From: a bacterium
GTDB taxonomy: Bacteria; UBA8248
Assembly (NCBI GenBank): GCA_965207065.1
Contig: OZ242260.1
Span: 3,488,001 to 3,552,000 of the forward strand
DNA: 64,000 nucleotides
Direction: 5' to 3'
This document shows, piece after piece, positions 8,613-20,607 of the stretch. A model generated the notes under the pieces. The model made no database searches and had not been told where the DNA came from. It worked only from the letters and a program-made list of their open reading frames with translations. Position numbers and translations under genes: made by a program. Each line of letters begins with the position of its first letter. Position 1 is the stretch's first letter.

Positions 8613-9617
8613 CTAATTCTTCAGCAAACCCATACCCATGAGCAGCTTCTTGTGCTTGGCGTCCTCGGAGGCGAAGAACTTGCCCAGCGGGGAGCCAGTC
8701 AGACAAGCGCGATTCAGCGCCTTCTTTTGCGTATAGGTTTTCCATTCCCCGGAAGCGCACAACTTGGAGAATAAATCGCTATACCATTTCAGGGCATCCT
8801 TGGGGATGCCGCCGGGCGCGGTGATGCTGCGCTGCATGAAATACACGAGTTGCGGCTGGCCCATTTCCTTGAAAGTGGGCACTTCCTTGAAAGCGGGGAT
8901 CCGCTCAGGCGTCAGCGCGGCTATCGGCCGCATTTTGCCGGGATAGTGCGGCAGACCCTCGGAGGGGTTGTTTACCGTCGAGTCGACGTGTCCGCCGGCG
9001 AGGTTTTTCGCCACGGTGCCGCCGCCCCGGAAGGGAACGTAGGTGATCATGCCTTTCAGGCCGTAGGCCTGCATGAGCATATTTGTGACGAGCTGGTCTT
9101 CCTGCATTTTGCCCGTGCCGCCCATGGTCCACTTGCCCTTTTTGGCTTTCACGGCCTTCACGAAATCCTCCATGTTCTTGATTCCCGATTTCGGATTGAC
9201 CCAAAGCAGGAACGTGTCCATGGCTAGGCGGTAGACCGGCGTGAGTTTCGTATAGTTCACCGGAAGTTTCCGCAGGGCGGGCGTGGTGAAGAAGCTGTTG
9301 AGCGTCACGAGAATGACGTGGGGATTTCCTTTTTTCGAGAGCAGGTAGAGCATCGCCTCGGCGCCCGAGCCGCCTTTCTTGTTGATCGGCACGAGGGGCT
9401 GCGGCGACCATTTGTTCTGGGTGACGATTTTCTGCATGAGGCGGGCGATGCGGTCCGCGCCGCCTCCTTTACCCGCCATGATGACGAACTCGATCGGCCG
9501 CGTCGGCTTCCATGCAGCAAGGGCCTGTGTGGTCCCCAGCGCAACGACGATAAACAAAGTCAGCGCGAGGGTGAGGAACGGAATAGCGCGTCTTGATGCT
9601 TTCAGCGATTTCATCAT
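8613..9617 (-). CDS. tctC: Tripartite tricarboxylate transporter substrate-binding protein (Bug/TctC)
   Basis: Signal peptide, P-x-RPIEFVI-x-AGKGGGAD-x-AR, VPFRGGG. Confidence 0.9.
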   Translation of the reverse strand: MMKSLKASRRAIPFLTLALTLFIVVALGTTQALAAWKPTRPIEFVIMAGKGGGADRIARLMQKIVTQNKWSPQPLVPINKKGGSGAEAMLYLLSKKGNPHVILVTLNSFFTTPALRKLPVNYTKLTPVYRLAMDTFLLWVNPKSGIKNMEDFVKAVKAKKGKWTMGGTGKMQEDQLVTNMLMQAYGLKGMITYVPFRGGGTVAKNLAGGHVDSTVNNPSEGLPHYPGKMRPIAALTPERIPAFKEVPTFKEMGQPQLVYFMQRSITAPGGIPKDALKWYSDLFSKLCASGEWKTYTQKKALNRACLTGSPLGKFFASEDAKHKKLLMGMGLLKN

Positions 9618-9877
9618 ATTCCCTCCTTTTTGTGCTGCGGAATGTTGTGCCTGTTACAGCGAAAACGATTCCATCATCAGTTGATGACTGAAAAAAACGA
9701 TTTCACCACTCTTGCCAACGGCGGAACTTCTCGAAAAGCAATCTTTCATTACGGCTGTGAATCCATGAATATTACCACGAAGCAACACGCTTCTCAATAA
9801 TACGATTTTCGCCCATGGGCGGGAAATTGGAGGAAATTGCATTATTCGCGCCGTATGAAGCGGAAAATGGACAGCCA

Positions 9878-10321
9878 TCAGATTTCTTCGATATCTTCTC
9901 TCGACTCGAAATCCCGGACGGCGCGGCGGATGTAGGGAGGCACGCGGACGGGCTTCTGCGTTTCCTTGTCGATGATCACATAGGCCGTCTGCGACCTGGC
10001 GACGAAGCGTTCCGACTCGGCCTCGTAGATCTCGTAATCCATCCTGATGCTCGAGTTCCCGATCTCGTAAATGCGCGCGTAGACTTCCAGCACCTCGTCG
10101 AAATGCGCAGGCGCCAGAAACTGGAGCGAGGCATCGACGATGACGATGTCGTACCCCCGCTCGAGCATGTCGAAATACGGAACGCCGATGGTGCGCAGGT
10201 AATCCATCTGCGCGGTGTCGACGTAGAGGAGGTAGTTGGCGTTGAACACCACGCCCTGGAGGTCCGTCTCGCCGAAGCGCACGCGCATTTCACTCTTGTA
10301 GTTGTACTGGTCTTTCGGCAT
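9878..10321 (-). CDS. YbgC/FadM-family acyl-CoA thioesterase
   Basis: RVRFGETDLQGVVFNANYL hotdog motif. Confidence 0.9.
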   Translation of the reverse strand: MPKDQYNYKSEMRVRFGETDLQGVVFNANYLLYVDTAQMDYLRTIGVPYFDMLERGYDIVIVDASLQFLAPAHFDEVLEVYARIYEIGNSSIRMDYEIYEAESERFVARSQTAYVIIDKETQKPVRVPPYIRRAVRDFESREDIEEI

Positions 10322-10461
10322 AGGGCATTTCTAATGAAAAAAACTGATATTCGCAAACCCGCGCTTGCCAATTGATGCCGCCCTCGGCTTGTTCCCTGAT
10401 TGGCGTCGGTTATAATGGCGTCCGTGATGGCGAGCCCAGCTTCAAGCATTCGGAGTCGTTG

Positions 10462-11730
10462 ATGATCAGCGTGGAAGACGCACAGAATTCGATACTGGAG
10501 ATGATTCACCCGATGGGACGCGAGCGGGTGGGCCTGCTCGATTGCCCGGGCAGGGTGCTGGCCGAGGACGTGCAATCCCCGCGTCCCGTCCCGCCATGGA
10601 ACAACTCGGCGATGGACGGCTACGCCCTTCGCACGGAAGACGTCCGCGGCGCGAGCCGGGAGACGCCCAAAACGCTGAAAGTGATCGAGGAGATTCAGGC
10701 GGGCGTCATGGCGAGCCGCACGCTGGGTCCTGGCGAGGCCATCAAGATCATGACGGGCGCGCCCATTCCAGATGGCGCGGACGCCGTCGTGCTGGTCGAG
10801 GAGACGGAGAGAACCTCCGAGGAGGATGTCCAGATATTCCTCGCCGTGCGCGAGGGAGAAGCCATCCGTCTCGCGGGTGAAGACGTGAAGCCGGGCGAAA
10901 CCGTTCTCTCACACGGCATCCGCCTGGGTGCGGCTTCCGCAGGCATGCTGGCGAACATCGGCCGGGCGAGGGTGTACGTCTATCAAAAACCGAAGGTGGC
11001 CATCCTCGCGACCGGAGAGGAACTGGTTGACCTGGGCGACGCCCCCGGCGTCGGGCAGATTTTCAACTCTAATTCCTACGCCCTGGCCGCACAGGTGCAG
11101 GAAGCCGGCGGAGAGCCGATTCTCCTGGGCATCGCCCGCGACAACGCCGAAGACCTGACCCGCCACATCAACGACGGGCTGGCCGCCGATTTGCTCATCA
11201 CGAGTGGCGGAGTGTCGGTGGGTGATTTCGACCTGGTGAAGTCCACGCTGGGCGGGCTGGGGAACGATATGCGCTTCTGGCGCGTGCGCATGAAGCCGGG
11301 CAAACCGATGGCGTTCGGCGTCCTGAACGGCAAGCCCGTGTTCGGCCTGCCGGGGAATCCCGTCTCCACGATGGTGAGTTTCGAGTTGTTCGTGCGGCCA
11401 TCGCTCCTGAAGATGCAGGGCCATGAAAATCTCTTCCGCACGACCGTGGAGGCGCGCCTCCTGCACCCGCTCACGAAATCCCCCGAGCGGCGCCACTACG
11501 TCCGCGCAATCGTCCACCGCGACGGGGACGAATGGACCGTCCAGGCCATAGAGGCCCAAGGCTCCAACATCCTGCATTCCATGGTGCGGGCGAACGCCCT
11601 GGTCGTGTTCCCCGAATACGAGACCGAACTCGCCGCCGGGAGCCGCGTAAAAGTCATCCTGCTGGGGGAGACGCCCTCGGAAAAACCCGAGCACATCGAG
11701 GCGGCTACCCCGGAACGGGTGCACTCCTGA
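10462..11730 (+). CDS. moeA: Molybdopterin molybdotransferase MoeA
   Basis: SAMDGYA, IMTGAPIP, TSGGVSVGDFD, MKPGKP, GLPGNPVS. Start placed at ATG 10462. Confidence 0.95.
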   Translation: MISVEDAQNSILEMIHPMGRERVGLLDCPGRVLAEDVQSPRPVPPWNNSAMDGYALRTEDVRGASRETPKTLKVIEEIQAGVMASRTLGPGEAIKIMTGAPIPDGADAVVLVEETERTSEEDVQIFLAVREGEAIRLAGEDVKPGETVLSHGIRLGAASAGMLANIGRARVYVYQKPKVAILATGEELVDLGDAPGVGQIFNSNSYALAAQVQEAGGEPILLGIARDNAEDLTRHINDGLAADLLITSGGVSVGDFDLVKSTLGGLGNDMRFWRVRMKPGKPMAFGVLNGKPVFGLPGNPVSTMVSFELFVRPSLLKMQGHENLFRTTVEARLLHPLTKSPERRHYVRAIVHRDGDEWTVQAIEAQGSNILHSMVRANALVVFPEYETELAAGSRVKVILLGETPSEKPEHIEAATPERVHS

Positions 11731-11773
11731 ACAATCAGCTTCCTGACTATCGCTTCTTCCCGGGGCATTACGC

Positions 11774-12397
11774 GTGAGCAACGAAGCAGCGACCAAGCTG
11801 CCGTATTCCGCCGCCATCCTGGCGGGCGGCAGAAGCCGCCGCATGGGCCGGGACAAATCCATGATGGAGATAGGCGGAGCTCCAATTATCAGGCGCATCG
11901 CGGACACTCTAGGCGATATTTTTCCTGAAATCCTCATTATCGCGAACGAAAAAGAACAGTATGAGCGGATGGGTCTCGACGTGGTCGGAGATATCCATCC
12001 CGGCAATGACTCGCTGGGCGGCCTGCATACGGCCGTTGCGAAAGCGCAAGGCCCGCACGTTTTCGTGGCGGGATGCGACATGCCGCTGCTCAGGCCCGAA
12101 CTCATTAACGGCCTCGCCTCGATGGTGGAGGACTGGGACGTGGTGATACCCATCAAGGACGATTACCCCGAGCCGCTTTGCGCTTTCTACGGAAAACAAT
12201 GCGAGCTTCCCGTCTTAGAGTCCATTTCGGCTGGGCGTCTCAAGATGATAGGGTTTCACGAACACGTGCGCGTGAGGCGGGTGGAAGAGGCGGCCTGGAG
12301 GGCTTGGGATCCCGAGGGAGCGTCTTTTCTGAACGCGAACACACCGGAAGAATTCGAAAAAATAAAAACCATCTCGATGAGGGGAGAGCCGAAATGA
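11774..12397 (+). CDS. mobA: Molybdenum cofactor guanylyltransferase MobA
   Basis: ILAGGRSRRMGRDK, CDMP, NANTPEE. Confidence 0.93.
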   Translation: MSNEAATKLPYSAAILAGGRSRRMGRDKSMMEIGGAPIIRRIADTLGDIFPEILIIANEKEQYERMGLDVVGDIHPGNDSLGGLHTAVAKAQGPHVFVAGCDMPLLRPELINGLASMVEDWDVVIPIKDDYPEPLCAFYGKQCELPVLESISAGRLKMIGFHEHVRVRRVEEAAWRAWDPEGASFLNANTPEEFEKIKTISMRGEPK

Positions 12398-12852
12398 GCA
12401 TCGCCGAGCGAATGAGTGAACTGGGAATCGAATTGCCCGATGCGCCCGCACCCGTCGGGGCGTACGTGCCATACGTCATATCCGGATCCCTGATGTTCAT
12501 ATCGGGCCAGATTCCCATCAGGGACGGCGCGATGATTTATGAGGGGAAAGTGCCGCTCGACGTCTCCATCGAGCAGGGGCAGGAATGCGCCGCGCTCTGT
12601 TTTCTGAACGCCATCGCTCAGGCGAAAGCGGCCCTGGGCGATCTGGAGCGCGTGGAGAGAATCGTGCGGATGACGGGCTACGTTGCCGTTGCGGCCGATT
12701 TCACGGCTCAACCGCTCGTCGTGAACGGGGCGTCCAATCTGGCCGCCGAGATTTTCGGGGACAAGGGCTTGCACGCCAGAGTAGCGGTGGGCGTGGCGGA
12801 GTTGCCATTAGGAGCGCCGGTTGAGCTCGAAGCGATACTCGAGGTGAAGTGA
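12394..12852 (+). CDS. RidA/YjgF-family protein
   Basis: PVGAYVP, ISGQIP, NGAS, HARVAVGV-x-LPLGAPVE. ATGA overlap with mobA. Confidence 0.9.
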   Translation: MSIAERMSELGIELPDAPAPVGAYVPYVISGSLMFISGQIPIRDGAMIYEGKVPLDVSIEQGQECAALCFLNAIAQAKAALGDLERVERIVRMTGYVAVAADFTAQPLVVNGASNLAAEIFGDKGLHARVAVGVAELPLGAPVELEAILEVK

Positions 12853-12895
12853 GCCGTAAAGCGATGGATGGGACGAATATTTCGCCGACAGTGGG

Positions 12896-13329
12896 AGAGT
12901 TGTTGAAAAAGCCCTTACGGATCGCGCCAAACCATTCTCCCCTTGCAGAGCCCCCCAACAACCACTCCCCCCTTGAGGGGGAGTCGAGGAGGCCGAGCGG
13001 TTTATGCGAAGGCCGATTCGGTGGGGGGTGAATCGCGTTTTATCGCCACTCCGAGTTATACCCCCCATCGAATCGCTTTCGGGCTTACGCCCTCAGCTCT
13101 TCGACTCCCCCTCAAGGGGGGAGTGAAATTCACAGCGCTCCTTTGGTGAGGTTTTTCAACAGCCCCAGAGGGGGGGGGGAATTGTTGAAAAAGTTCTGAT
13201 TTCGTGATTTGGCACATGGAGGTGACAGGGGAGAGGGCGGGCACGGAGGCTTTTCCTTACACCCCTTGCGGCTTTCGCCGGAATGACGGCAGTGGTCAAT
13301 TCCGAACGAGGATAGGTTTTCCAACAGCT
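12896..13329. mobile_element. Two adjacent MITE-like units bounded by (G)TTGTTGAAAAA...TTTTTCAACAGC inverted termini
   Basis: Unit 1 (12896-13166) contains CTCCCCCTTGAGGGGGAG and CTCCCCCTCAAGGGGGGAG inverted palindromes. Unit 2 (13178-13329) contains a CGCCGGAATGAC module. Confidence 0.65.
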
Positions 13330-13432
13330 AAAACCGAGAAGCAAATATCTACTCACGCTTACAAAGACCGGGCTTCTCTGTATAATCTTGCAGGATAACA
13401 AGTCGCCTGCGAAACAAAATGGTGGGGATTCA

Positions 13433-14854
13433 ATGAATAATCGCTTCATCCTGTCGATGCTGTTGATGTTGCTCATGGGTACCGCCGCGCCTGCGCAGGC
13501 GAGCCTTGGCATCGACTATATGCGAAAGATCGAGGGGGCGTTCACGCAGATCGCGGAAAGCGTGAAGCCGACGGTGGTAAGCATACGAGCGGAGAGAAAA
13601 AAGGGAACAATCCAGCAGACGCCCCGGTCGCCCCATCCAAACATGCCGCTGTTCTCCTCCGGGTCAGGCGTCATCATCGACCCGGCCGGATATATTCTCA
13701 CGAACAACCACGTGGTCAGTAATACGCGGAGACTGCGCGTGCGCCTTTGGGATGAGTCCGCCCATTGGGCGAAAGTCGTCGGCACGGATCGCTATACCGA
13801 TCTCGCGCTGATCAAAATCAACCCGCACCGCAAGCTGCCGGTGGCGAAGTTCGGGGATTCCGACAAGGTGAAAGTGGGCCAGTGGTCGATAGCCGTGGGT
13901 GATCCTTTCGGCATTACGAGAACGTTCACGGTAGGCGTCGTGAGCGGGATGGGGCGCAGCGGCGTCGGCGTCGCGCGGTATGAGCATTTCATCCAGACGG
14001 ACGCCGCCATCAACCGGGGCAACAGCGGCGGGCCCCTTGTGAATATCGACGGGCAGGTCATCGGCATCAACACGGCGATTCCGGCTCCCGGCAGTGGGCT
14101 CGGGTTCGCCATTCCCGTCAACATGGCGAAAGACGTCATCAAATACCTGAGGAGAAGCGGAAATTTCCCGCGCGGTTATCTAGGCGTGAGCATTCAGCCG
14201 GTGAGTCAGGACATGGCCTACCTGCTGGGGCTCTCCGGAGCGAAAGGCGCGCTCGTGGGTTCTCTGCTGAAAGACGGCCCGGCGGAGGGAGCGGGCATCC
14301 GCATGGGCGACGTGATCGTCCGCCTCGGCGGAACGCGCGTCGTGGATACGGCACATCTCCAGCGTCTCGTGGGCTGGACGCCGCCGGGAGATGCCGTGGC
14401 GGTGGAAGTCGTGCGAAACGCCCAGAGAAAAAAATTCATGGTCAAGCTGGTCCGTCTGCCAGAGCAGGAAACGGCCAACGCAAAGGCGCAGCCGAGCGAA
14501 ATCGATGAACCCGAGACCAGGAAGAATTACGGCGTGGCACTTGAGAACCTGACCGACGAGTTGAAGGAGAAAGGCAAGCTGGAGACGGACGGCGGCGTAT
14601 ACATCAGCGACGTGGAAGAGGGCAGCAGGGCCTATTACGACGGCTTGCGCGAGGGCATGGTGATACGCGGACTGACCTATCGTCTGCCCGGAAACGGGAA
14701 AACGCCCATCCGCGTCTCGATAGAAAAACTCGAAGACGTCGAAGCATTGCTGAAAAAAATTCCCGCGGGCGCGAACGTCCTGGGACAGGTCGTGCGCGGG
14801 ACAGACCGCGGGGAGCGGACTTTCTTTGCCGTCCTCCACGGATTTCGACGCTAG
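13433..14854 (+). CDS. DegP/DegQ (HtrA) periplasmic serine protease with two PDZ domains
   Basis: Signal peptide, TNNHVV, DLALIK, QTDAAINRGNSGGPL, PDZ RGYLGV. Confidence 0.93.
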   Translation: MNNRFILSMLLMLLMGTAAPAQASLGIDYMRKIEGAFTQIAESVKPTVVSIRAERKKGTIQQTPRSPHPNMPLFSSGSGVIIDPAGYILTNNHVVSNTRRLRVRLWDESAHWAKVVGTDRYTDLALIKINPHRKLPVAKFGDSDKVKVGQWSIAVGDPFGITRTFTVGVVSGMGRSGVGVARYEHFIQTDAAINRGNSGGPLVNIDGQVIGINTAIPAPGSGLGFAIPVNMAKDVIKYLRRSGNFPRGYLGVSIQPVSQDMAYLLGLSGAKGALVGSLLKDGPAEGAGIRMGDVIVRLGGTRVVDTAHLQRLVGWTPPGDAVAVEVVRNAQRKKFMVKLVRLPEQETANAKAQPSEIDEPETRKNYGVALENLTDELKEKGKLETDGGVYISDVEEGSRAYYDGLREGMVIRGLTYRLPGNGKTPIRVSIEKLEDVEALLKKIPAGANVLGQVVRGTDRGERTFFAVLHGFRR

Positions 14855-14891
14855 CCCCAACGGGTTCTGGCCGCCAGAGGAGAGCGCTTTC

Positions 14892-15974
14892 ATGCCTCAG
14901 ATGAGAAGCATTCTTGTCGCCTTACTGGTCCTTGCCTTTCCGGTTCTCTCGGGCGCGAGCCCTGAAACCGAGATTCGCACACTGCTGCCGAAAGACGGCA
15001 TACCCGCCATCGATGCGCCGGAATACGCGAGCGTGAAAGACGCCAAGAGGTTCATGCAGCCGGACGAGATGGTGATCGGCATCAACATCAAGGGGGAGAA
15101 GCGGGCCTATTCCGTCCCCCTGCTCAGCTCGCACGAGATCGTGAACGACGTGGTGGGCGGGAGCGCCGTCTCCGTCACCTGGTGACCGCTCTGCTATTCG
15201 GCCATCGTGTATGACCGGAACATGGACGGGGAAAAACTCAGCTTCGGCGTTTCGGGAAAACTCTGGAAGAACGTGCTCATCATGTACGACCGCCAGACGG
15301 ATACGCTCTGGAGCCATCTGACGGGAGAGGGCCTCATCGGCCCGCTCAAGGGCAAGCGCCTGAAGACGTTCCCCGCCGCCATGATGCGCTATTCCGAATG
15401 GACGCAGCTCTATCCTGATACCCTGGTGCTGAAGAAGAAGTTGAAGGGCATGGGGGGCATGTTCCGCAGCTCCTCCCGGGACCCGTATGAGGGGTATTAC
15501 TACAGTTCGCAGACGGGCGTGATCCCCGAGAAATACCGCGACAATCGCCTGCACCCGAAAACCCTGCTGGTGGCCCTTGCGCTCGATTCCCCGAAAGAGA
15601 AAGGGGAGCAAGTATCCAAGGTGTATCCCTTCGCGGATTTGAACCGCGCGGGCGTCGTGAACGACCGCTTCGCCGGCCGGGACGTTCTGGTCACCTACTG
15701 CGAGGGGGCGGGTACGGGGGTCGTTTTCGACCGCGTCCTGAAGGGCAAGACGCTGGAGTTCGAACTCATTGCGAGCGAGGGCGCCAAAGGCGCCGCCGCC
15801 TGCCGGTTCATGAAGGACAAGAAGACCGGTTCGCGCTGGCAGCGCCTGACAGGCATGGCCGTCGATGGGCCGATGAAGGGCGCCAAGTTGAACCAGCTAT
15901 CCACGACGCTCGCGTTCTGGTTCGGCTGGAAGGATTATTATCCAAAGAGCGAGATATACCGCCACCCGAAATAA
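14892..15974 (+). CDS. DUF3179-family exported protein, probable selenoprotein (in-frame TGA at 15183-15185 = Sec, U-P-L-C)
   Basis: Two listed ORFs share a frame and are separated by a single TGA. Read-through gives KDGIPAID...HEIVND...VTW-U-PLCYSAIVYDR...FGVSGKL...MYDRQTDTLWS, the DUF3179 pattern, whose usual motif is CPLC. Confidence 0.85.
15197..15220 (+). promoter_or_regulatory. Candidate bacterial SECIS hairpin
   Basis: TTCGGCCAT-CGTGT-ATGACCGGAA starts 11 nt after the UGA, with a G near the 5' side of the apical loop. The stem is imperfect. Confidence 0.5.
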
Positions 15975-16074
15975 CCGGATGGATTTGAGAACACCGAGCA
16001 GGAGTCAAGCTGCGCCTTTTACGTCAAAAGAACGGGAACGCCGCCCGCCGCCACATGGTTAAGGAATCAGAGAT

Positions 16075-16851
16075 TTGAGCCCCGTCATATTCGAAATCGG
16101 ACCGTTCGCGCTGCGCTGGTATGGACTCATGTACGTCACCGCCGTGCTGGCCGGCGTCTGGCTGGTGAGGCGAGAAGTAGCGCGCAAGGGGATGCCCATT
16201 ACGCCCGATGAGGTGATGAACTTCGGGCTCCTCGTCATGTTCGCAGGCATCCTGGGCGGCAGAATTTATTATGTTCTCTTCAATTGGGAATTCTACCAGG
16301 GCGCAATGTGGGAGGTCTTCGCCATCTGGAAAGGGGGCCTCGCCATACACGGCGGGCTCATCGGTGGGGCGCTGGCGGGCTATCTGTATCTCAAGAACCA
16401 CGCCGTTTCCACCTGGGAGTTCGCCGACGCGGTGGCGCCCGCCATCATGCTCGGCCAGGTGTTCGGGCGGTTCGGCAACTTCATGAACGGCGACGCGCAC
16501 GGCGTGCCGACGACGATGCCCTGGGGCGTGGAGTTTCCGATGACCTCCATCGCGGGCCGGGAATTCCCCGGTCAGGCGACGCACCCCGTGATGATATACG
16601 AGCTTCTCCTGAACCTCGTCTGGTTCTTCATCCTGAGAAGATTGAGGCTTACGAACCACAAGCCGGGCTTCATCTTCTGCCTCTACTTCGTCCTCTACTC
16701 CTTCGGACGCGCCGCTGTGAGCGGCTTCCGCGCGGACAGCCTGTGGTTCGGCCCAATGCGCGCCGCATATCTCGCAAGCGCCGTGCTCATCGTCGTTTTC
16801 GGCGCGGTTATCGTGCGGTGGCGGATGTGGGAGAGGGAGGGGAGCGAGTAA
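16075..16851 (+). CDS. lgt: Prolipoprotein diacylglyceryl transferase
   Basis: LRWYGLMY, GGRIYYV, GGLAIHGG, GRFGNFMNGD, HPVMIYE. Confidence 0.95.
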   Translation: MSPVIFEIGPFALRWYGLMYVTAVLAGVWLVRREVARKGMPITPDEVMNFGLLVMFAGILGGRIYYVLFNWEFYQGAMWEVFAIWKGGLAIHGGLIGGALAGYLYLKNHAVSTWEFADAVAPAIMLGQVFGRFGNFMNGDAHGVPTTMPWGVEFPMTSIAGREFPGQATHPVMIYELLLNLVWFFILRRLRLTNHKPGFIFCLYFVLYSFGRAAVSGFRADSLWFGPMRAAYLASAVLIVVFGAVIVRWRMWEREGSE

Positions 16852-16895
16852 GGTAATACGGTATCTCCGTGGTTCTCCTTTCAGGATAATATTCA

Positions 16896-17378
16896 ATGAC
16901 CCAGATGGCTCATGACATTCATTGTATGGCGTTAAGGCAACTTAAAACCGCCCTTTACCTATACTTTGAACGAGAGGATTACTATTCCGTTATCACGTTG
17001 GCGGGTGCTTCGGAGGAGGTGTTCGGAAAGCTCCTGAAGGAAGATAATCCCGAAAACGCTTTGGATGCCATTAAAAAAGGTGGGGCGGCGATACACGAGG
17101 CGCTTTTTGAAGAAGACATCCCTGAAAAGGAGATTAGCGACAGGGCAAACTGGGCACGGAATTTACTCAAGCATTGGAGTCCGGGTCAGCCTAAAGTTTT
17201 CGAGTTCGATGCACCGGAGGAAGCCAAGGATATGCTGAATCGCGCCATCGACAACTACTATGATCTGACAGGAAATCTCACGCCTGCGATGCAGCAGTTT
17301 CAAGATATGCACGTTCAAGATAACCCACAGATTCGTCCATGTTCTGCAAGCGATGAGGAATCTTCCGCAACACAATAA
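16896..17378 (+). CDS. Hypothetical protein, HEPN-like (R-x4-H)
   Basis: Lower GC than neighbours, helical pattern, ITLAGASEE and RNLLKH. Confidence 0.6.
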   Translation: MTQMAHDIHCMALRQLKTALYLYFEREDYYSVITLAGASEEVFGKLLKEDNPENALDAIKKGGAAIHEALFEEDIPEKEISDRANWARNLLKHWSPGQPKVFEFDAPEEAKDMLNRAIDNYYDLTGNLTPAMQQFQDMHVQDNPQIRPCSASDEESSATQ

Positions 17379-17460
17379 TTGAACGAGTTTTGGTTCATTT
17401 TCGCTGACAGAATTACACGTTTTTCACTAGAATCTTGCCCTCACAGTGAGCGAAGATCCC

Positions 17461-17710
17461 CTGGATTCCGGCATTCGCCGGAATGACGACGATGCAGAAC
17501 TCAATTGTAGGGACAGGTCGCGACCTGTCCCTACGGGTTCGTTATATTGCCGGGATGTTCACAGGGGCGTCGCCTTTCCCCAAGGTTGACCCTGCGCGGT
17601 CAGGCGAAAGGCTTCGGACAGGCACAGGGACCTGTCCCTACGATTCCCGCAATCCTCCCTTACGGAAAATTTTCACGTTTCGGGCGGGCACAGAGGCCCG
17701 CTCCAACGCA
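17461..17710. repeat. REP-like palindrome cluster
   Basis: GGATTCCGGCATTCGCCGGAATGAC, GTAGGGACAGGTCGCGACCTGTCCCTAC, GGACAGGCACAGGGACCTGTCCCTAC, GGGCGGGCACAGAGGCCCGCTCC. Confidence 0.75.
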
Positions 17711-17833
17711 AAGCGGCAATCCATTTCAAGGAAAATTTTCACCCGGTGCCGGGAGATTTATGGAGCGCTCTCGGGTAGAATCGCGCCATTCAACTTTCGA
17801 CCAATCACTCGATTTAAAGTGGAGAGCAAAGAC

Positions 17834-18550
17834 ATGGGAATTCGCATCGTGGATCTGTCGCAGGAGATTTATGACGGGATGCCCGTTTATCCGGGCCACC
17901 AGCGGACGGGGGTTTTCCCGAACAAAACGCACGCCGAGACGGCCAAGGCGTATGCGAATTCGCCATCGGGCCATACCTCGACGACGAACTGCCTCGTGAT
18001 GAGCGACCACGGCCCCACACACGTGGACGCCTTTTACCACATCGACAAGGACGGGGAGACGATCGACCAGTTGGGCCTCGAGTGGTTCTACAACGAGGCG
18101 ATCTGCCTTGACCTCTCCAAATTCTGCAACACCGAGGACTGGATGGAGCCGGCGGACCTGGAAGATGCGTGCGAGAAGGCGGGACTGGAAGTGCCGGATA
18201 AGGGAAGCGTCCTCATCTGGACGGGCCACTACGAGGCGAATTACGGCGGCGATTTTCATACCTGGCTGCACGTCTACCCCGGGCTGAGCGAGGCCGCGAC
18301 GATATGGCTGGCGGACAGGGGCTGCATTAACGTCGGCATCGATTCGCCGAGCGTGGATTCCTCCCAGGCCTTCCGCGACAAGGGCTACTGGGCGCACAAG
18401 GCTTGCCGGGAGCGCAAGGTGCTGAACGTGGAGAACCTAGCGAATTTGAAGGAAGTGGTGAACACGAAGTTCTTCTTCTCGTGCCTGCCGCTCAACATAC
18501 GAGGCGGAACGGGCTCTCCCGTGCGCGCCGTGGCGATTTACCACGAGTAG
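17834..18550 (+). CDS. Cyclase-family (kynurenine formamidase-like) metal-dependent hydrolase
   Basis: IVDLSQEI-x-MPVYPG, HGPTHVDA, VGIDSPSVD, VENLANL, GSPVRAVA. Start at ATG 17834 after GGAG. Confidence 0.88.
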   Translation: MGIRIVDLSQEIYDGMPVYPGHQRTGVFPNKTHAETAKAYANSPSGHTSTTNCLVMSDHGPTHVDAFYHIDKDGETIDQLGLEWFYNEAICLDLSKFCNTEDWMEPADLEDACEKAGLEVPDKGSVLIWTGHYEANYGGDFHTWLHVYPGLSEAATIWLADRGCINVGIDSPSVDSSQAFRDKGYWAHKACRERKVLNVENLANLKEVVNTKFFFSCLPLNIRGGTGSPVRAVAIYHE

Positions 18551-18579
18551 GGGAGGTACAACGAGCAAGGGCAAGTAGT

Positions 18580-18674
18580 AATGACAACCCTTCCGGGTTG
18601 TCACTGCCCCCGTGGTTGTCCGAACCCTGGGTTGTCCCAATTCGTAAGGACAGGTACAGGGGCCTGTCCCTACG
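18580..18674. repeat. REP-like palindromes
   Basis: TGACAACCCTTCCGGGTTGTCA and GTAAGGACAGGTACAGGGGCCTGTCCCTAC. Confidence 0.65.
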
Positions 18675-19431
18675 TTCGAATCGAATTCCAAGCTTTTGGG
18701 CGGCTATCCCTGTCAAGATCGCTCTGGAGCCGCAACCCCGTACGGCCTCTGCCGCGCATTTCCCCGCATTTTCGAGGATTCTTTGCTGCGGCCCCGCGCT
18801 ATCCTCCAGAAAACCCCTCCAAGAAAGCAGGTGGAGGGGGCAGGGTGGTCGGAGCTGGCGAATCCGCGCAGTCTTCATGAGGAACAAGTGATGGGAAAGG
18901 CGATTTCAGGCGTTGATTTCATCAATACGAAACGGGCGAATTTCTCGCGCTATCCGTACGCCGGCAACGCGGATATGGCGGCAAAGCTCTCAGGCCCCCT
19001 CGCTGAAGCGACAACGGCAATCGCTCCTTCACCAGTCGCGATTGAACTGAAAAATAAGATAAATTCAGATAAATATCGATAAATTCCCGAAAATGTTTAT
19101 GGATCAACAAATTGTGTATACACCATATTATTAGAACAATATCACGATATCTTAAAGTAACACATTAGATAATTATCGAAATTTATCGAATTAAAAAAGT
19201 TTTAGGCGACCACGCAATTGCCCGCATTTGAGCGCACCGAAGTCCTCGCCTCACACGCATCCATCCGGCTGCCCGGCGGGTGGCTCTCCTCCAGAACCAA
19301 GGCGCCGCCTCCCGATTGCACGCTCCGCTTCGAGGGGATACTATCCGGTGCACATCATAGCGGCTCGATACGGATCCAGGGCTCCGGGGCTACCCTTGCC
19401 TGGCGGCGCGGCACATCAACAGGGGATGTAT

Positions 19432-20607
19432 ATGGACTTCACACTCACTCCCGAACAGGAACAGCTCCAGAAGACGGCGCACGACTTCGCCGCGCAGGAA
19501 ATACGCCCCGTCGCGGCGGCGCTCGACAGGGAACCCGACCCGATGAAGCGTTTCCCCTGGGAGGTGCTGGAGAAAGCCAGCAAGCTGGGTCTGAGGACCC
19601 TGGCGCTTCCCGAGGATATGGGCGGGCCGGGATGCGACACCCTCACGCTGTGCCTCGTGGGCGAGGAACTCGCCTGGGGCGACATGGGCACGGCCATCAC
19701 CCTCGATCAGGACTGGAAAATCACCCATCTGTTCGAGAAACTGGCGAATGAAGAACAGAAGGCGCGATTCCGGAAATCCTTCCAGGAAGACCACCAGTTT
19801 CACCTGGCCGTCGGGATGACGGAGGAAACCGCCGGTTCGGACAACATCATCCCCTACAACAGCCCCGACGCCGGCGTGCGTACGTCCGCCGTGCGCGAGG
19901 GCGATGGCTGGATAGCCAACGGGAAGAAGCGTTACATCAGCAACGGGGGGATCGCGAAACTCTGCATCGTCGCCATGCGGACGGACCCGACGAAAGGCGT
20001 GGCGGAAGGCATGACGTATTTCATCATCACGCCGGATATGGAAGGTTTCCGCTACGGAAAAATTCACGACAAAATGGGGCAGCGGTTGTCCCTGAACGCG
20101 GAACTCATTTTTGAGAATTGCAGGATTCCGGATGAAAACCGCGTCACGGAAGTGAACCGCGCCATGGAGGCGCGCCGGTTGTTCTTCCCCGGCTCGAACA
20201 TCGAAGCCGCCGCCACCGTTCTCGGCACCGCCAGAGCGGCCTATGAAGACGCCTTGACGCACGCCCGGAGCCGGGTTCAGGGGGGCAAGCCGATCATCGA
20301 GCATCAGGCGATAGGCTTTATGCTGGCCGATTGTTTCGCCGAGTACGAAGCGAGCAAGCGCTTGCTCCACTACGCCGCCTGGACAATGGGCCAGAAGGGC
20401 CTTTATGACCCCAAGATGGGTTTCATGACCAAGTGTTTCGTGTCCGAATCCTCCTACCGGGTCGCAACGCGCGCACTGGAGGTCTGGGGCGGCACCGGTT
20501 ACATGACGGATGCGCCGATGGAGAAATACCTGAGAGATGTGACCAGTTTCCTGCATTCCGACGGGACGAACCAGGTGATGCGCATTCGTTCCATGAAGTT
20601 TTTATAG
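19432..20607 (+). CDS. Acyl-CoA dehydrogenase family protein
   Basis: MDFTLTPEQ, MTEETAGSD, NGKKRYISNG, KMGQR, RVQGGKPI, WGGTGY. Confidence 0.92.
   Translation: MDFTLTPEQEQLQKTAHDFAAQEIRPVAAALDREPDPMKRFPWEVLEKASKLGLRTLALPEDMGGPGCDTLTLCLVGEELAWGDMGTAITLDQDWKITHLFEKLANEEQKARFRKSFQEDHQFHLAVGMTEETAGSDNIIPYNSPDAGVRTSAVREGDGWIANGKKRYISNGGIAKLCIVAMRTDPTKGVAEGMTYFIITPDMEGFRYGKIHDKMGQRLSLNAELIFENCRIPDENRVTEVNRAMEARRLFFPGSNIEAAATVLGTARAAYEDALTHARSRVQGGKPIIEHQAIGFMLADCFAEYEASKRLLHYAAWTMGQKGLYDPKMGFMTKCFVSESSYRVATRALEVWGGTGYMTDAPMEKYLRDVTSFLHSDGTNQVMRIRSMKFL

Follow-up and report, generated by a model that had tools for sequence, protein, structure and literature searches.

A 64,000-nt stretch of contig OZ242260.1, referred to here as the window, contains a gene of the DUF3179 family that is interrupted by a single in-frame TGA codon at positions 15183–15185 and lies between the genes of a DegP/HtrA-type protease and Lgt (Table 1). 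Two open reading frames (ORFs), 14826–15185 and 15207–15974, are in the same frame in the window sequence, and this TGA is the sole stop between them. The same arrangement had been noted in a preliminary description of this DNA made from its letters only, in which the TGA was proposed to encode selenocysteine (Sec, U). Read-through from ATG 14892 with the TGA taken as U gives a protein of 360 residues that reads ...SAVSVTW-U-PLCYSAIVYDR... at the site, and the gene contains no further stops or frameshifts. TGA terminates 16 of the 44 Pfam-backed genes of the window and is thus an ordinary stop elsewhere; apart from the DUF3179 gene, the only TGA-interrupted frames in the 64-kb window were antisense shadow frames.

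Table 1. Coordinates of the features at the DUF3179 locus and of its two neighbours (window positions).
Feature	Position	Strand	Basis and remarks
DegP/HtrA-type serine protease with PDZ domain, upstream neighbour	13388..14854	+	Pfam
Shine-Dalgarno-like GGAG	14879..14882	+	9 nt 5' of ATG 14892; read from sequence
DUF3179 gene, probable selenoprotein, complete	14892..15974	+	360 codons; ATG 14892, stop TAA 15972-15974; in-frame TGA taken as Sec
Signal-peptide-like N-terminus, residues 1-22, MPQMRSILVALLVLAFPVLSGA	14892..14957	+	judged by eye; without lipobox Cys
TGA, probable selenocysteine codon (U98)	15183..15185	+	Sec/Cys column and TGA conservation in relatives
U-P-L-C motif, U98...C101	15183..15194	+	in the model, turn between strands 91-98 and 103-108
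SECIS-like hairpin	15197..15219	+	minimum free energy fold and codon conservation; core 15199-15217, CGGCCAU-CGUGU-AUGACCG
Cys270 (TGC)	15699..15701	+	repeat-equivalent of U98; invariant in 26 aligned Sec-clade sequences
Cys304 (TGC)	15801..15803	+	almost invariant in the Sec clade; not present in the rest of the family
Lgt, prolipoprotein diacylglyceryl transferase, downstream neighbour	16075..16851	+	PF01790, 1.2e-69

The read-through protein matches the Pfam family DUF3179 (PF11376) with 305.3 bits against a cut-off of 27 (E 6e-91), in two stretches located on both sides of the TGA. A profile search against NCBIfam matched no family, and a sequence search of the PDB returned chance antibody chains only. 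The family is very large: 9718 representative clusters (50% identity) match at E <=0.001. According to the alignment with full-length homologues, the TGA falls on the first cysteine of the family motif [WYF]-C-P-L-C. In a first homologue alignment, this column contained Cys in 14 of 17 sequences (Arg in one, Ser in two); in a wider one it contained Cys in 62 of 69, the remainder being Ser (5), Ala (1) and His (1). The TGA thus pairs with a family cysteine, and C-P-L-C is the usual form of the motif at this place, both as had been anticipated. The surrounding conserved sequence, HEIVND...TW-U-PLC, is present as well; in the alignment of 70 sequences (the 69 homologues plus the query, with the U of the query scored as C), H is found in 66, E in 67, N in 68, D in 69, P in 67 and L in 69. 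The Cys-type homologues share 33–47% identity with the query over their full length.

All 38 closest matches in the protein database (at least 58% identity) are partial pieces of 202–260 aa covering at most 71% of the query, as expected from the earlier prediction that standard gene calling would split the gene. When 25 of these pieces were aligned, every start fell 3' of the TGA column, a result to be expected of gene callers that stop at the TGA. The starts chosen differ among callers (MYDR..., MLEG..., MVDG... and others).

Two groups of DUF3179 sequences deserve separate mention. In one full-length subgroup (P0045, P0049 and P0057), the Sec/Cys column is occupied by Arg (WRPLC) or Ser (WSPLC); a single base change turns TGA into CGA or into TCA, and these sequences may derive from Sec forms or be mis-read. 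Seven representative clusters (P0178, P0179, P0214, P0218, P0250, P0257 and P0264; 41–42% identity, 233–238 aa) have the same start directly after the motif and are without Cys270 and Cys304. They may be split Sec forms of other lineages.

A scan of species-representative genomes yielded 45 loci, designated L001–L045. Loci L001–L033 are close relatives, labelled Nitrospinota, Nitrospinaceae, Tectomicrobia or 'bacterium'; in L030 the contig end precedes the TGA site, hence 32 related loci are informative. TGA was found at the column in all 32 at 49–96% protein identity (31 by pattern, plus L033). The distant loci L034–L044, which belong to Zetaproteobacteria and archaea, have TGC in eight cases and TGT in three, i.e., a cysteine codon in 11 of 11; L045 is without the region of the TGA site and does not enter this count. 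Close relatives with neither TGA nor a Cys codon at this column, which the preliminary description had named as a sign of a nonsense pseudogene, were not seen among the 32 informative loci. Locus L024 contains tandem DUF3179 copies (8700–11030), both with TGA, which read VTW-U-PLCYTAIVYDR and ITW-U-PLCFTAIVYGR. In L033 the site reads W-TGA-P-F-C, and the contig is frameshifted: its DUF3179 gene (L033:5591–6660) shifts frame twice, probably as a result of assembly errors in a low-coverage metagenome-assembled genome, yet keeps the TGA and the hairpin described below. The ratio of nonsynonymous to synonymous substitution rates (dN/dS), calculated in 12 comparisons with the window gene, was 0.07–0.58 before the TGA (66 codons) and 0.10–0.44 after it, which indicates purifying selection on both sides.

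Downstream of the TGA, the minimum free energy (MFE) fold of 15195–15222 pairs 15197–15201 with 15215–15219 and 15203–15205 with 15211–15213 around a loop at 15206–15210 (-5.8 kcal/mol). This fold corresponds to the imperfect hairpin reported earlier 11 nt past the UGA. The hairpin core comprises a stem of seven positions, one of them a C.A mismatch, and the 5-nt loop CGUGU, whose second and third letters are G and U; the distance from the UGA is 11 nt to the stem and 20 nt to the loop. In a codon alignment of 32 sequences, from which L033 was excluded for its frameshifts, codons 104–108 (GCC ATC GTG TAT GAC) and that of Cys101 (TGC) are invariant, and Thr103 is encoded by ACG in 24 of the 24 sequences with Thr there. 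Among the 147 conserved degenerate columns outside residues 101–109, only 5 use a single codon. Thirty of 33 sequences share the 19-nt core exactly; in the three that differ, the C.A mismatch is shifted or closed. The L024 variant, located in the downstream copy of the tandem pair, has a perfect 7-bp stem (-11.5 kcal/mol).

The model of the bacterial selenocysteine insertion sequence (SECIS) given in the Fig. 2 legend of PMC13188914 comprises a loop of 3–9 nt, G in the first two loop positions, 16–37 nt between UGA and loop, an upper stem of 4–16 bp and an MFE of <=-7.5 kcal/mol. The window hairpin fits this model in loop length, loop G (position 2) and 20-nt spacing, and falls short of it in stability (-5.8 against -7.5 kcal/mol). 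A search of Rfam at the TGA site found nothing at gathering score and, at E up to 10, only chance snoRNA matches. The hairpin at 15197–15219 is read here as a putative SECIS because of its conservation, not because of compensatory change.

With regard to the selenocysteine machinery of the lineage, a tRNA-Sec with the anticodon TCA was detected at the start of a Tectomicrobia-labelled contig (L028:2–98) by both ARAGORN and Rfam (RF01852, 75.2 bits against a cut-off of 47). It lies 3.4 kb upstream of the TGA-bearing DUF3179 gene of the same locus. In addition, Table 2 of the BSepDB paper gives 54 selenoprotein genes for the organism of L023. Both observations indirectly support the presence of Sec machinery in the lineage. 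The window itself contains three tRNAs (two Pro and one Arg), and no tRNA-Sec was found in it by ARAGORN or Rfam.

As for the N-terminus of the protein, inspection by eye of the sequence MPQMRSILVALLVLAFPVLSGA, which is followed by SPE, shows one basic residue and a hydrophobic core of 13 residues; positions -3 and -1 are occupied by small residues. The layout, namely, one Arg, then ILVALLVLAFPVL, then S-G-A, has the look of a signal peptide of the Sec secretion type. N-termini of similar architecture, though of divergent sequence, occur in 30 of 31 related loci (L015 being ambiguous), in agreement with the signal-peptide-like N-terminus noted previously. Many Cys-type homologues, also judged by eye, have signal, membrane-anchor or lipoprotein-like N-termini, and some of them are lipobox-like; fusions of Cys-type homologues to fn3, Ig-like, NHL, WD40 and VWA domains occur as well. 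The window protein has no Cys in residues 1–97, and its c-region reads V-L-S-G-A-S; since a lipobox Cys is lacking, the protein would not be a substrate of Lgt. We infer from these features that the DUF3179 protein is exported.

The two halves of the protein align with each other in BLASTP (E 7e-11, 30% identity, 83 columns), and the TGA column meets Cys270 (...VLVTY-C-EGAG...), so the internal half-repeat with a cysteine opposite the TGA, described previously, is recovered by alignment. In the rest of the family, the Cys270 column contains mostly Asp, and Asp or a gap is what the Cys270 and Cys304 columns mostly show there. Cys270 and Cys304 may be linked as a disulfide or provide a second redox site. 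Two AlphaFold2 models are confident: that of the whole protein has a pLDDT of 92.8, and that of the N-terminal half one of 97.7. The whole-protein model is mostly beta; residues 91–98 and 103–108 are adjacent strands of one domain, with the motif on the beta-turn between them. The secondary-structure string of the model repeats likewise, with strands ending at residues 98 and 270. Fold searches with the whole model and with the N-terminal half gave no PDB match at E <=0.001. The best matches of both were Rieske-type ferredoxins and were weak (E 0.015–0.04, target-normalised TM-score 0.48–0.58). No thioredoxin-type Pfam match was obtained, and no thioredoxin-type protein was present among the listed fold matches.

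Information on a possible function was provided by the domain composition of the family. According to a domain scan of 26 long homologues, 12 carry an N-terminal AhpC-TSA/Redoxin (TlpA-like) domain and four an fn3-type domain, whilst five show DUF3179 alone; NHL, WD40, ArsP permease, FlgD-Ig and BNR domains occur as single cases. In the redoxin-DUF3179 fusions, both the CxxC of the redoxin part and the CPLC of the DUF3179 part are kept in 12 of 12. The window protein has no redoxin domain, none was found among its window neighbours, and Pfam analysis of neighbouring ORFs of unknown function was empty. The pattern of cysteine loss was followed in the 69 homologues: His81 and both cysteines are present in 52, and the first Cys alone is kept in seven and the second alone in one. 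In 13, Thr, Ala or Ser occupies the second position. This pattern is best read as that of a nucleophilic Cys (here Sec) accompanied by a dispensable resolving Cys.

Positions 14892–15974 thus form one gene of the DUF3179 family, in which the TGA is paired with the family cysteine and both the TGA and the RNA element downstream of it are conserved among relatives. The following mechanism is proposed. The UGA at 15183–15185 would be decoded as selenocysteine, with the conserved stem-loop 11–35 nt downstream serving SelB as the SECIS, and the protein would be made with an N-terminal signal peptide and act outside the cytoplasm. U98, in place of the first Cys of C-P-L-C, would be the reactive residue and C101 its partner in a selenenylsulfide/selenol-thiol couple. 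The protein would then be a selenol/thiol oxidoreductase kept reduced by TlpA/ResA-like extracytoplasmic thioredoxins. The redox chemistry and the thioredoxin-like partner are suggested by the domain fusions and the pattern of cysteine loss; for this part of the proposal, the chances that it is right or wrong appear evenly balanced. Taken as a whole, an exported, Sec-decoded DUF3179 protein with a redox role is probably the best explanation of the data.

The upstream degP, the DUF3179 gene and the downstream lgt are co-oriented; 37 and 100 nt separate them, and these gaps contain no terminator-like site. All three belong to a collinear block of about 12 kb, which consists of TctC, orf186, MoeA, MobA, RidA, DegP, DUF3179, Lgt, a cyclase and an acyl-CoA dehydrogenase; in the window the block occupies 8613–20607, and it is kept across >25 species-level genomes among L001–L033. 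DegP adjoins the gene in 28 of the 32 informative related loci (it is absent in L018, L021 and L028 and lies 3 kb off in L031), and the gene is followed by Lgt in 30 of 33 (L028 and L031 lack it, and the contig of L005 is too short). At eight distant Cys-type loci of Zetaproteobacteria and archaea, neither DegP nor Lgt was found nearby, nor was any recurrent partner suggesting a function; an M24 peptidase gene lies directly upstream in four Zetaproteobacteria loci (L036, L037, L040 and L042). Within the block, the longest ORFs of the MobA-like (11774–12397) and RidA-like (12178–12852) genes overlap by 220 nt. The Pfam match of RidA begins at residue 78, and its true start is probably further downstream. 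The third-position G+C content of ORFs is about 0.7–0.88 before ~21.7 kb and about 0.4–0.55 at 21.7–39.7 kb, which shows compositional heterogeneity of the window.

Several observations weigh against a Sec-decoded redox protein. The hairpin, at -5.8 kcal/mol, is weak: 50 of 200 shuffles fold equally well, and -7.5 kcal/mol is reached by only 6 of the 33 sequences. The MFE fold of the longer segment 15183–15260 is without the hairpin and no better than shuffles (z +1.56). Covariation is almost nil, with five of seven pairs invariant and one pair changed on both sides. A competing hairpin (15195–15211, UAUUCG-GCCAU-CGUGUA, loop GCCAU) overlaps the SECIS-like one, though it leaves the frozen third positions of TAT and GAC unexplained; it is the MFE fold in several relatives, e.g., L007, L010, L016 and L018. 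None of selA, selB, selC and selD was found in the 64-kb window by ARAGORN, Rfam and Pfam analysis of 60 ORFs. Finally, the model does not have a thioredoxin-like fold, and a metal site can likewise look like C-P-x-C on a beta-turn with an invariant His close by. The low stability of the hairpin would suit translation that simply ends at TGA 15183, with a 97-residue exported peptide and a separate 255-aa cytoplasmic protein starting at GTG 15207 as products, and the databases do list the 3' part as separate proteins of ~250 aa (38 of 38 closest matches). Such a split, however, would cut a beta-hairpin within one confidently modelled domain, and its 3' product would be without a signal peptide and without the conserved N-terminal third. 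Moreover, the starts of the 3' pieces are not fixed among callers, the stop falls exactly at the family Cys column in 32 of 32 loci, and synonymous sites are frozen directly downstream of it; two separate proteins are therefore very unlikely. A lone in-frame stop, taken by itself, also looks like a nonsense pseudogene, and the TGA could be a TGC or TGG misread in sequencing or assembly. Against these readings, 32 independent assemblies at 49–96% protein identity have TGA at this place, as do both copies of L024, dN/dS is well below 1 on both flanks, and the window gene has no other stop or frameshift. On these grounds, and because TGA is an ordinary stop elsewhere, a pseudogene and a sequencing error, as well as reassignment of the code, are virtually excluded. 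With these alternatives considered, the gene at 14892–15974 is, judging from its sequence and that of its relatives, very probably a genuine Sec-decoded DUF3179 gene.

The function leaves more room for alternatives. U98, C101 and His81 may together bind Cu, Zn, Fe or Hg in a metal site carried by a Rieske-like beta-sandwich, with Sec as a ligand and not as the redox nucleophile; on this reading, the protein would act in the periplasm as a metal chaperone, a sensor or a metalloenzyme. The ligand motif of the Rieske [2Fe-2S] cluster is Cys-x-His...Cys-x-x-His. The best fold matches (E 0.015–0.04) are Rieske-type ferredoxins, C-P-L-C is modelled on a turn between two strands, and His81, 17 residues N-terminal of the motif, is present in 66 of 70 sequences, at a distance which we take to resemble the ligand spacing of the Rieske CxH...CPxH. 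Also in favour of metal binding, one homologue is fused to an ArsP-type permease, and the selenoprotein families next to it in the review tables have to do with metals, namely, MerT, a UxxC-bearing P-type ATPase, YHS and CobW-like; in addition, the fused redoxin could merely hold a ligand Cys reduced. Nevertheless, no PDB match reaches E 0.001, there are three candidate ligands only as compared with four in the Rieske site, and 13 of the 69 homologues have Thr, Ala or Ser in place of the second Cys, seven of these 13 retaining the first one, as is typical of a resolving Cys rather than of a ligand. A metal site is thus possible but doubtful. The preliminary description had proposed an exported UxxC redox selenoprotein and, from its co-orientation with DegP and Lgt, had suggested for it a role in quality control of envelope proteins or in lipoprotein-cysteine redox. 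Its first part is the reading favoured here; the neighbour-based part did not find support. It is true that the three genes are co-oriented with short gaps and no terminator-like site, that DegP and Lgt adjoin in most related loci and that all three products act at the envelope. However, the adjacency belongs to the ~12-kb block, which also holds the unrelated MoeA, MobA, RidA, cyclase and acyl-CoA dehydrogenase genes; since this block is collinear in the lineage, the adjacency reflects its shared ancestry and is no evidence for shared function. Furthermore, DegP is missing in three related loci, in L028 and L031 both neighbours are either lacking or at a distance, neither is found near the Cys-type homologues at the eight distant loci, and none of the 26 long fusion forms is joined to a protease or to Lgt. 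A joint role with DegP and Lgt is unlikely.

If the favoured reading of an extracytoplasmic redox selenoprotein is extended to the family, DUF3179 might be a large class of extracytoplasmic thiol/selenol oxidoreductases with a duplicated Rieske-like beta-sandwich and a TlpA-like electron source, and without the thioredoxin fold, in which the Sec clade gained C270/C304 as an additional internal relay or resolving site; this generalisation is speculative. In a family of this size, the Sec/Cys pair marks residue 98 as reactive, and the recurrent fusion with a TlpA-like redoxin offers a testable partner. There is also a practical consequence: selenoprotein genes of this kind are mis-called throughout the clade, the gene being split or shortened in 38 of 38 close database entries, and there is no NCBIfam model for it.

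DUF3179 has no described function, and two of the papers found by full-text search for the family list it in selenoprotein tables only; this agrees with the preliminary description, which had also stated that Sec variants were annotated before. A table in PMC9312934 lists a DUF3179 selenoprotein with the motif UxxC/T (example MBW1804167.1), and a table in PMC13188914 lists a PF11376 selenoprotein with the same motif (example MDJ0986319.1); both credit Zhang & Gladyshev 2007 (PMC1976440). The passages of PMC1976440 consulted name the families OS_HP1-3, YHS and others, not DUF3179, and the organism table of the BSepDB supplement, in the part consulted, does not mention DUF3179. The tabulated Sec families share the Pfam family, the U-x-x-C motif and the Sec/Cys column with the window protein; in comparison with their table rows only, the window clade adds C270, C304 and the nearly invariant 19-nt hairpin core. 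Cys-type DUF3179 proteins, including the redoxin fusions P0158 and P0230, have the same domain with C-P-L-C where the window protein has U-P-L-C. They differ in having Cys instead of Sec, mostly Asp at position 270 and no C304, whereas the window protein is without a fused redoxin.

Among more distant systems, exported thioredoxin-fold UxxC/CxxU selenoproteins (thiol:disulfide interchange or Dsb-like families; PMC1976440, Table 1) share the signal peptide and a Sec/Cys motif with two intervening residues, and selenenylsulfide chemistry is likely common to both. Unlike them, the window protein is predicted to be all-beta, with a duplicated half-domain and the motif on a beta-turn and not at a helix N-cap. 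Rieske-type [2Fe-2S] ferredoxins (e.g., PDB 5bok, 2qpz and 3gce) are the best but weak fold match (E 0.015–0.13, 10–16% identity); in place of their ligand set, the window protein has S-S-H81...U98-P-L-C101, so that two of the four positions differ. Sec-containing DUF3179 is therefore already known, and the window gene is a further member of it in a lineage reported to be rich in selenoproteins. The lineage-wide conservation of the TGA and of the 19-nt hairpin core, Cys270 and Cys304, the redoxin fusions and the weak lead to a Rieske-like fold appear to be additions to the table entries.

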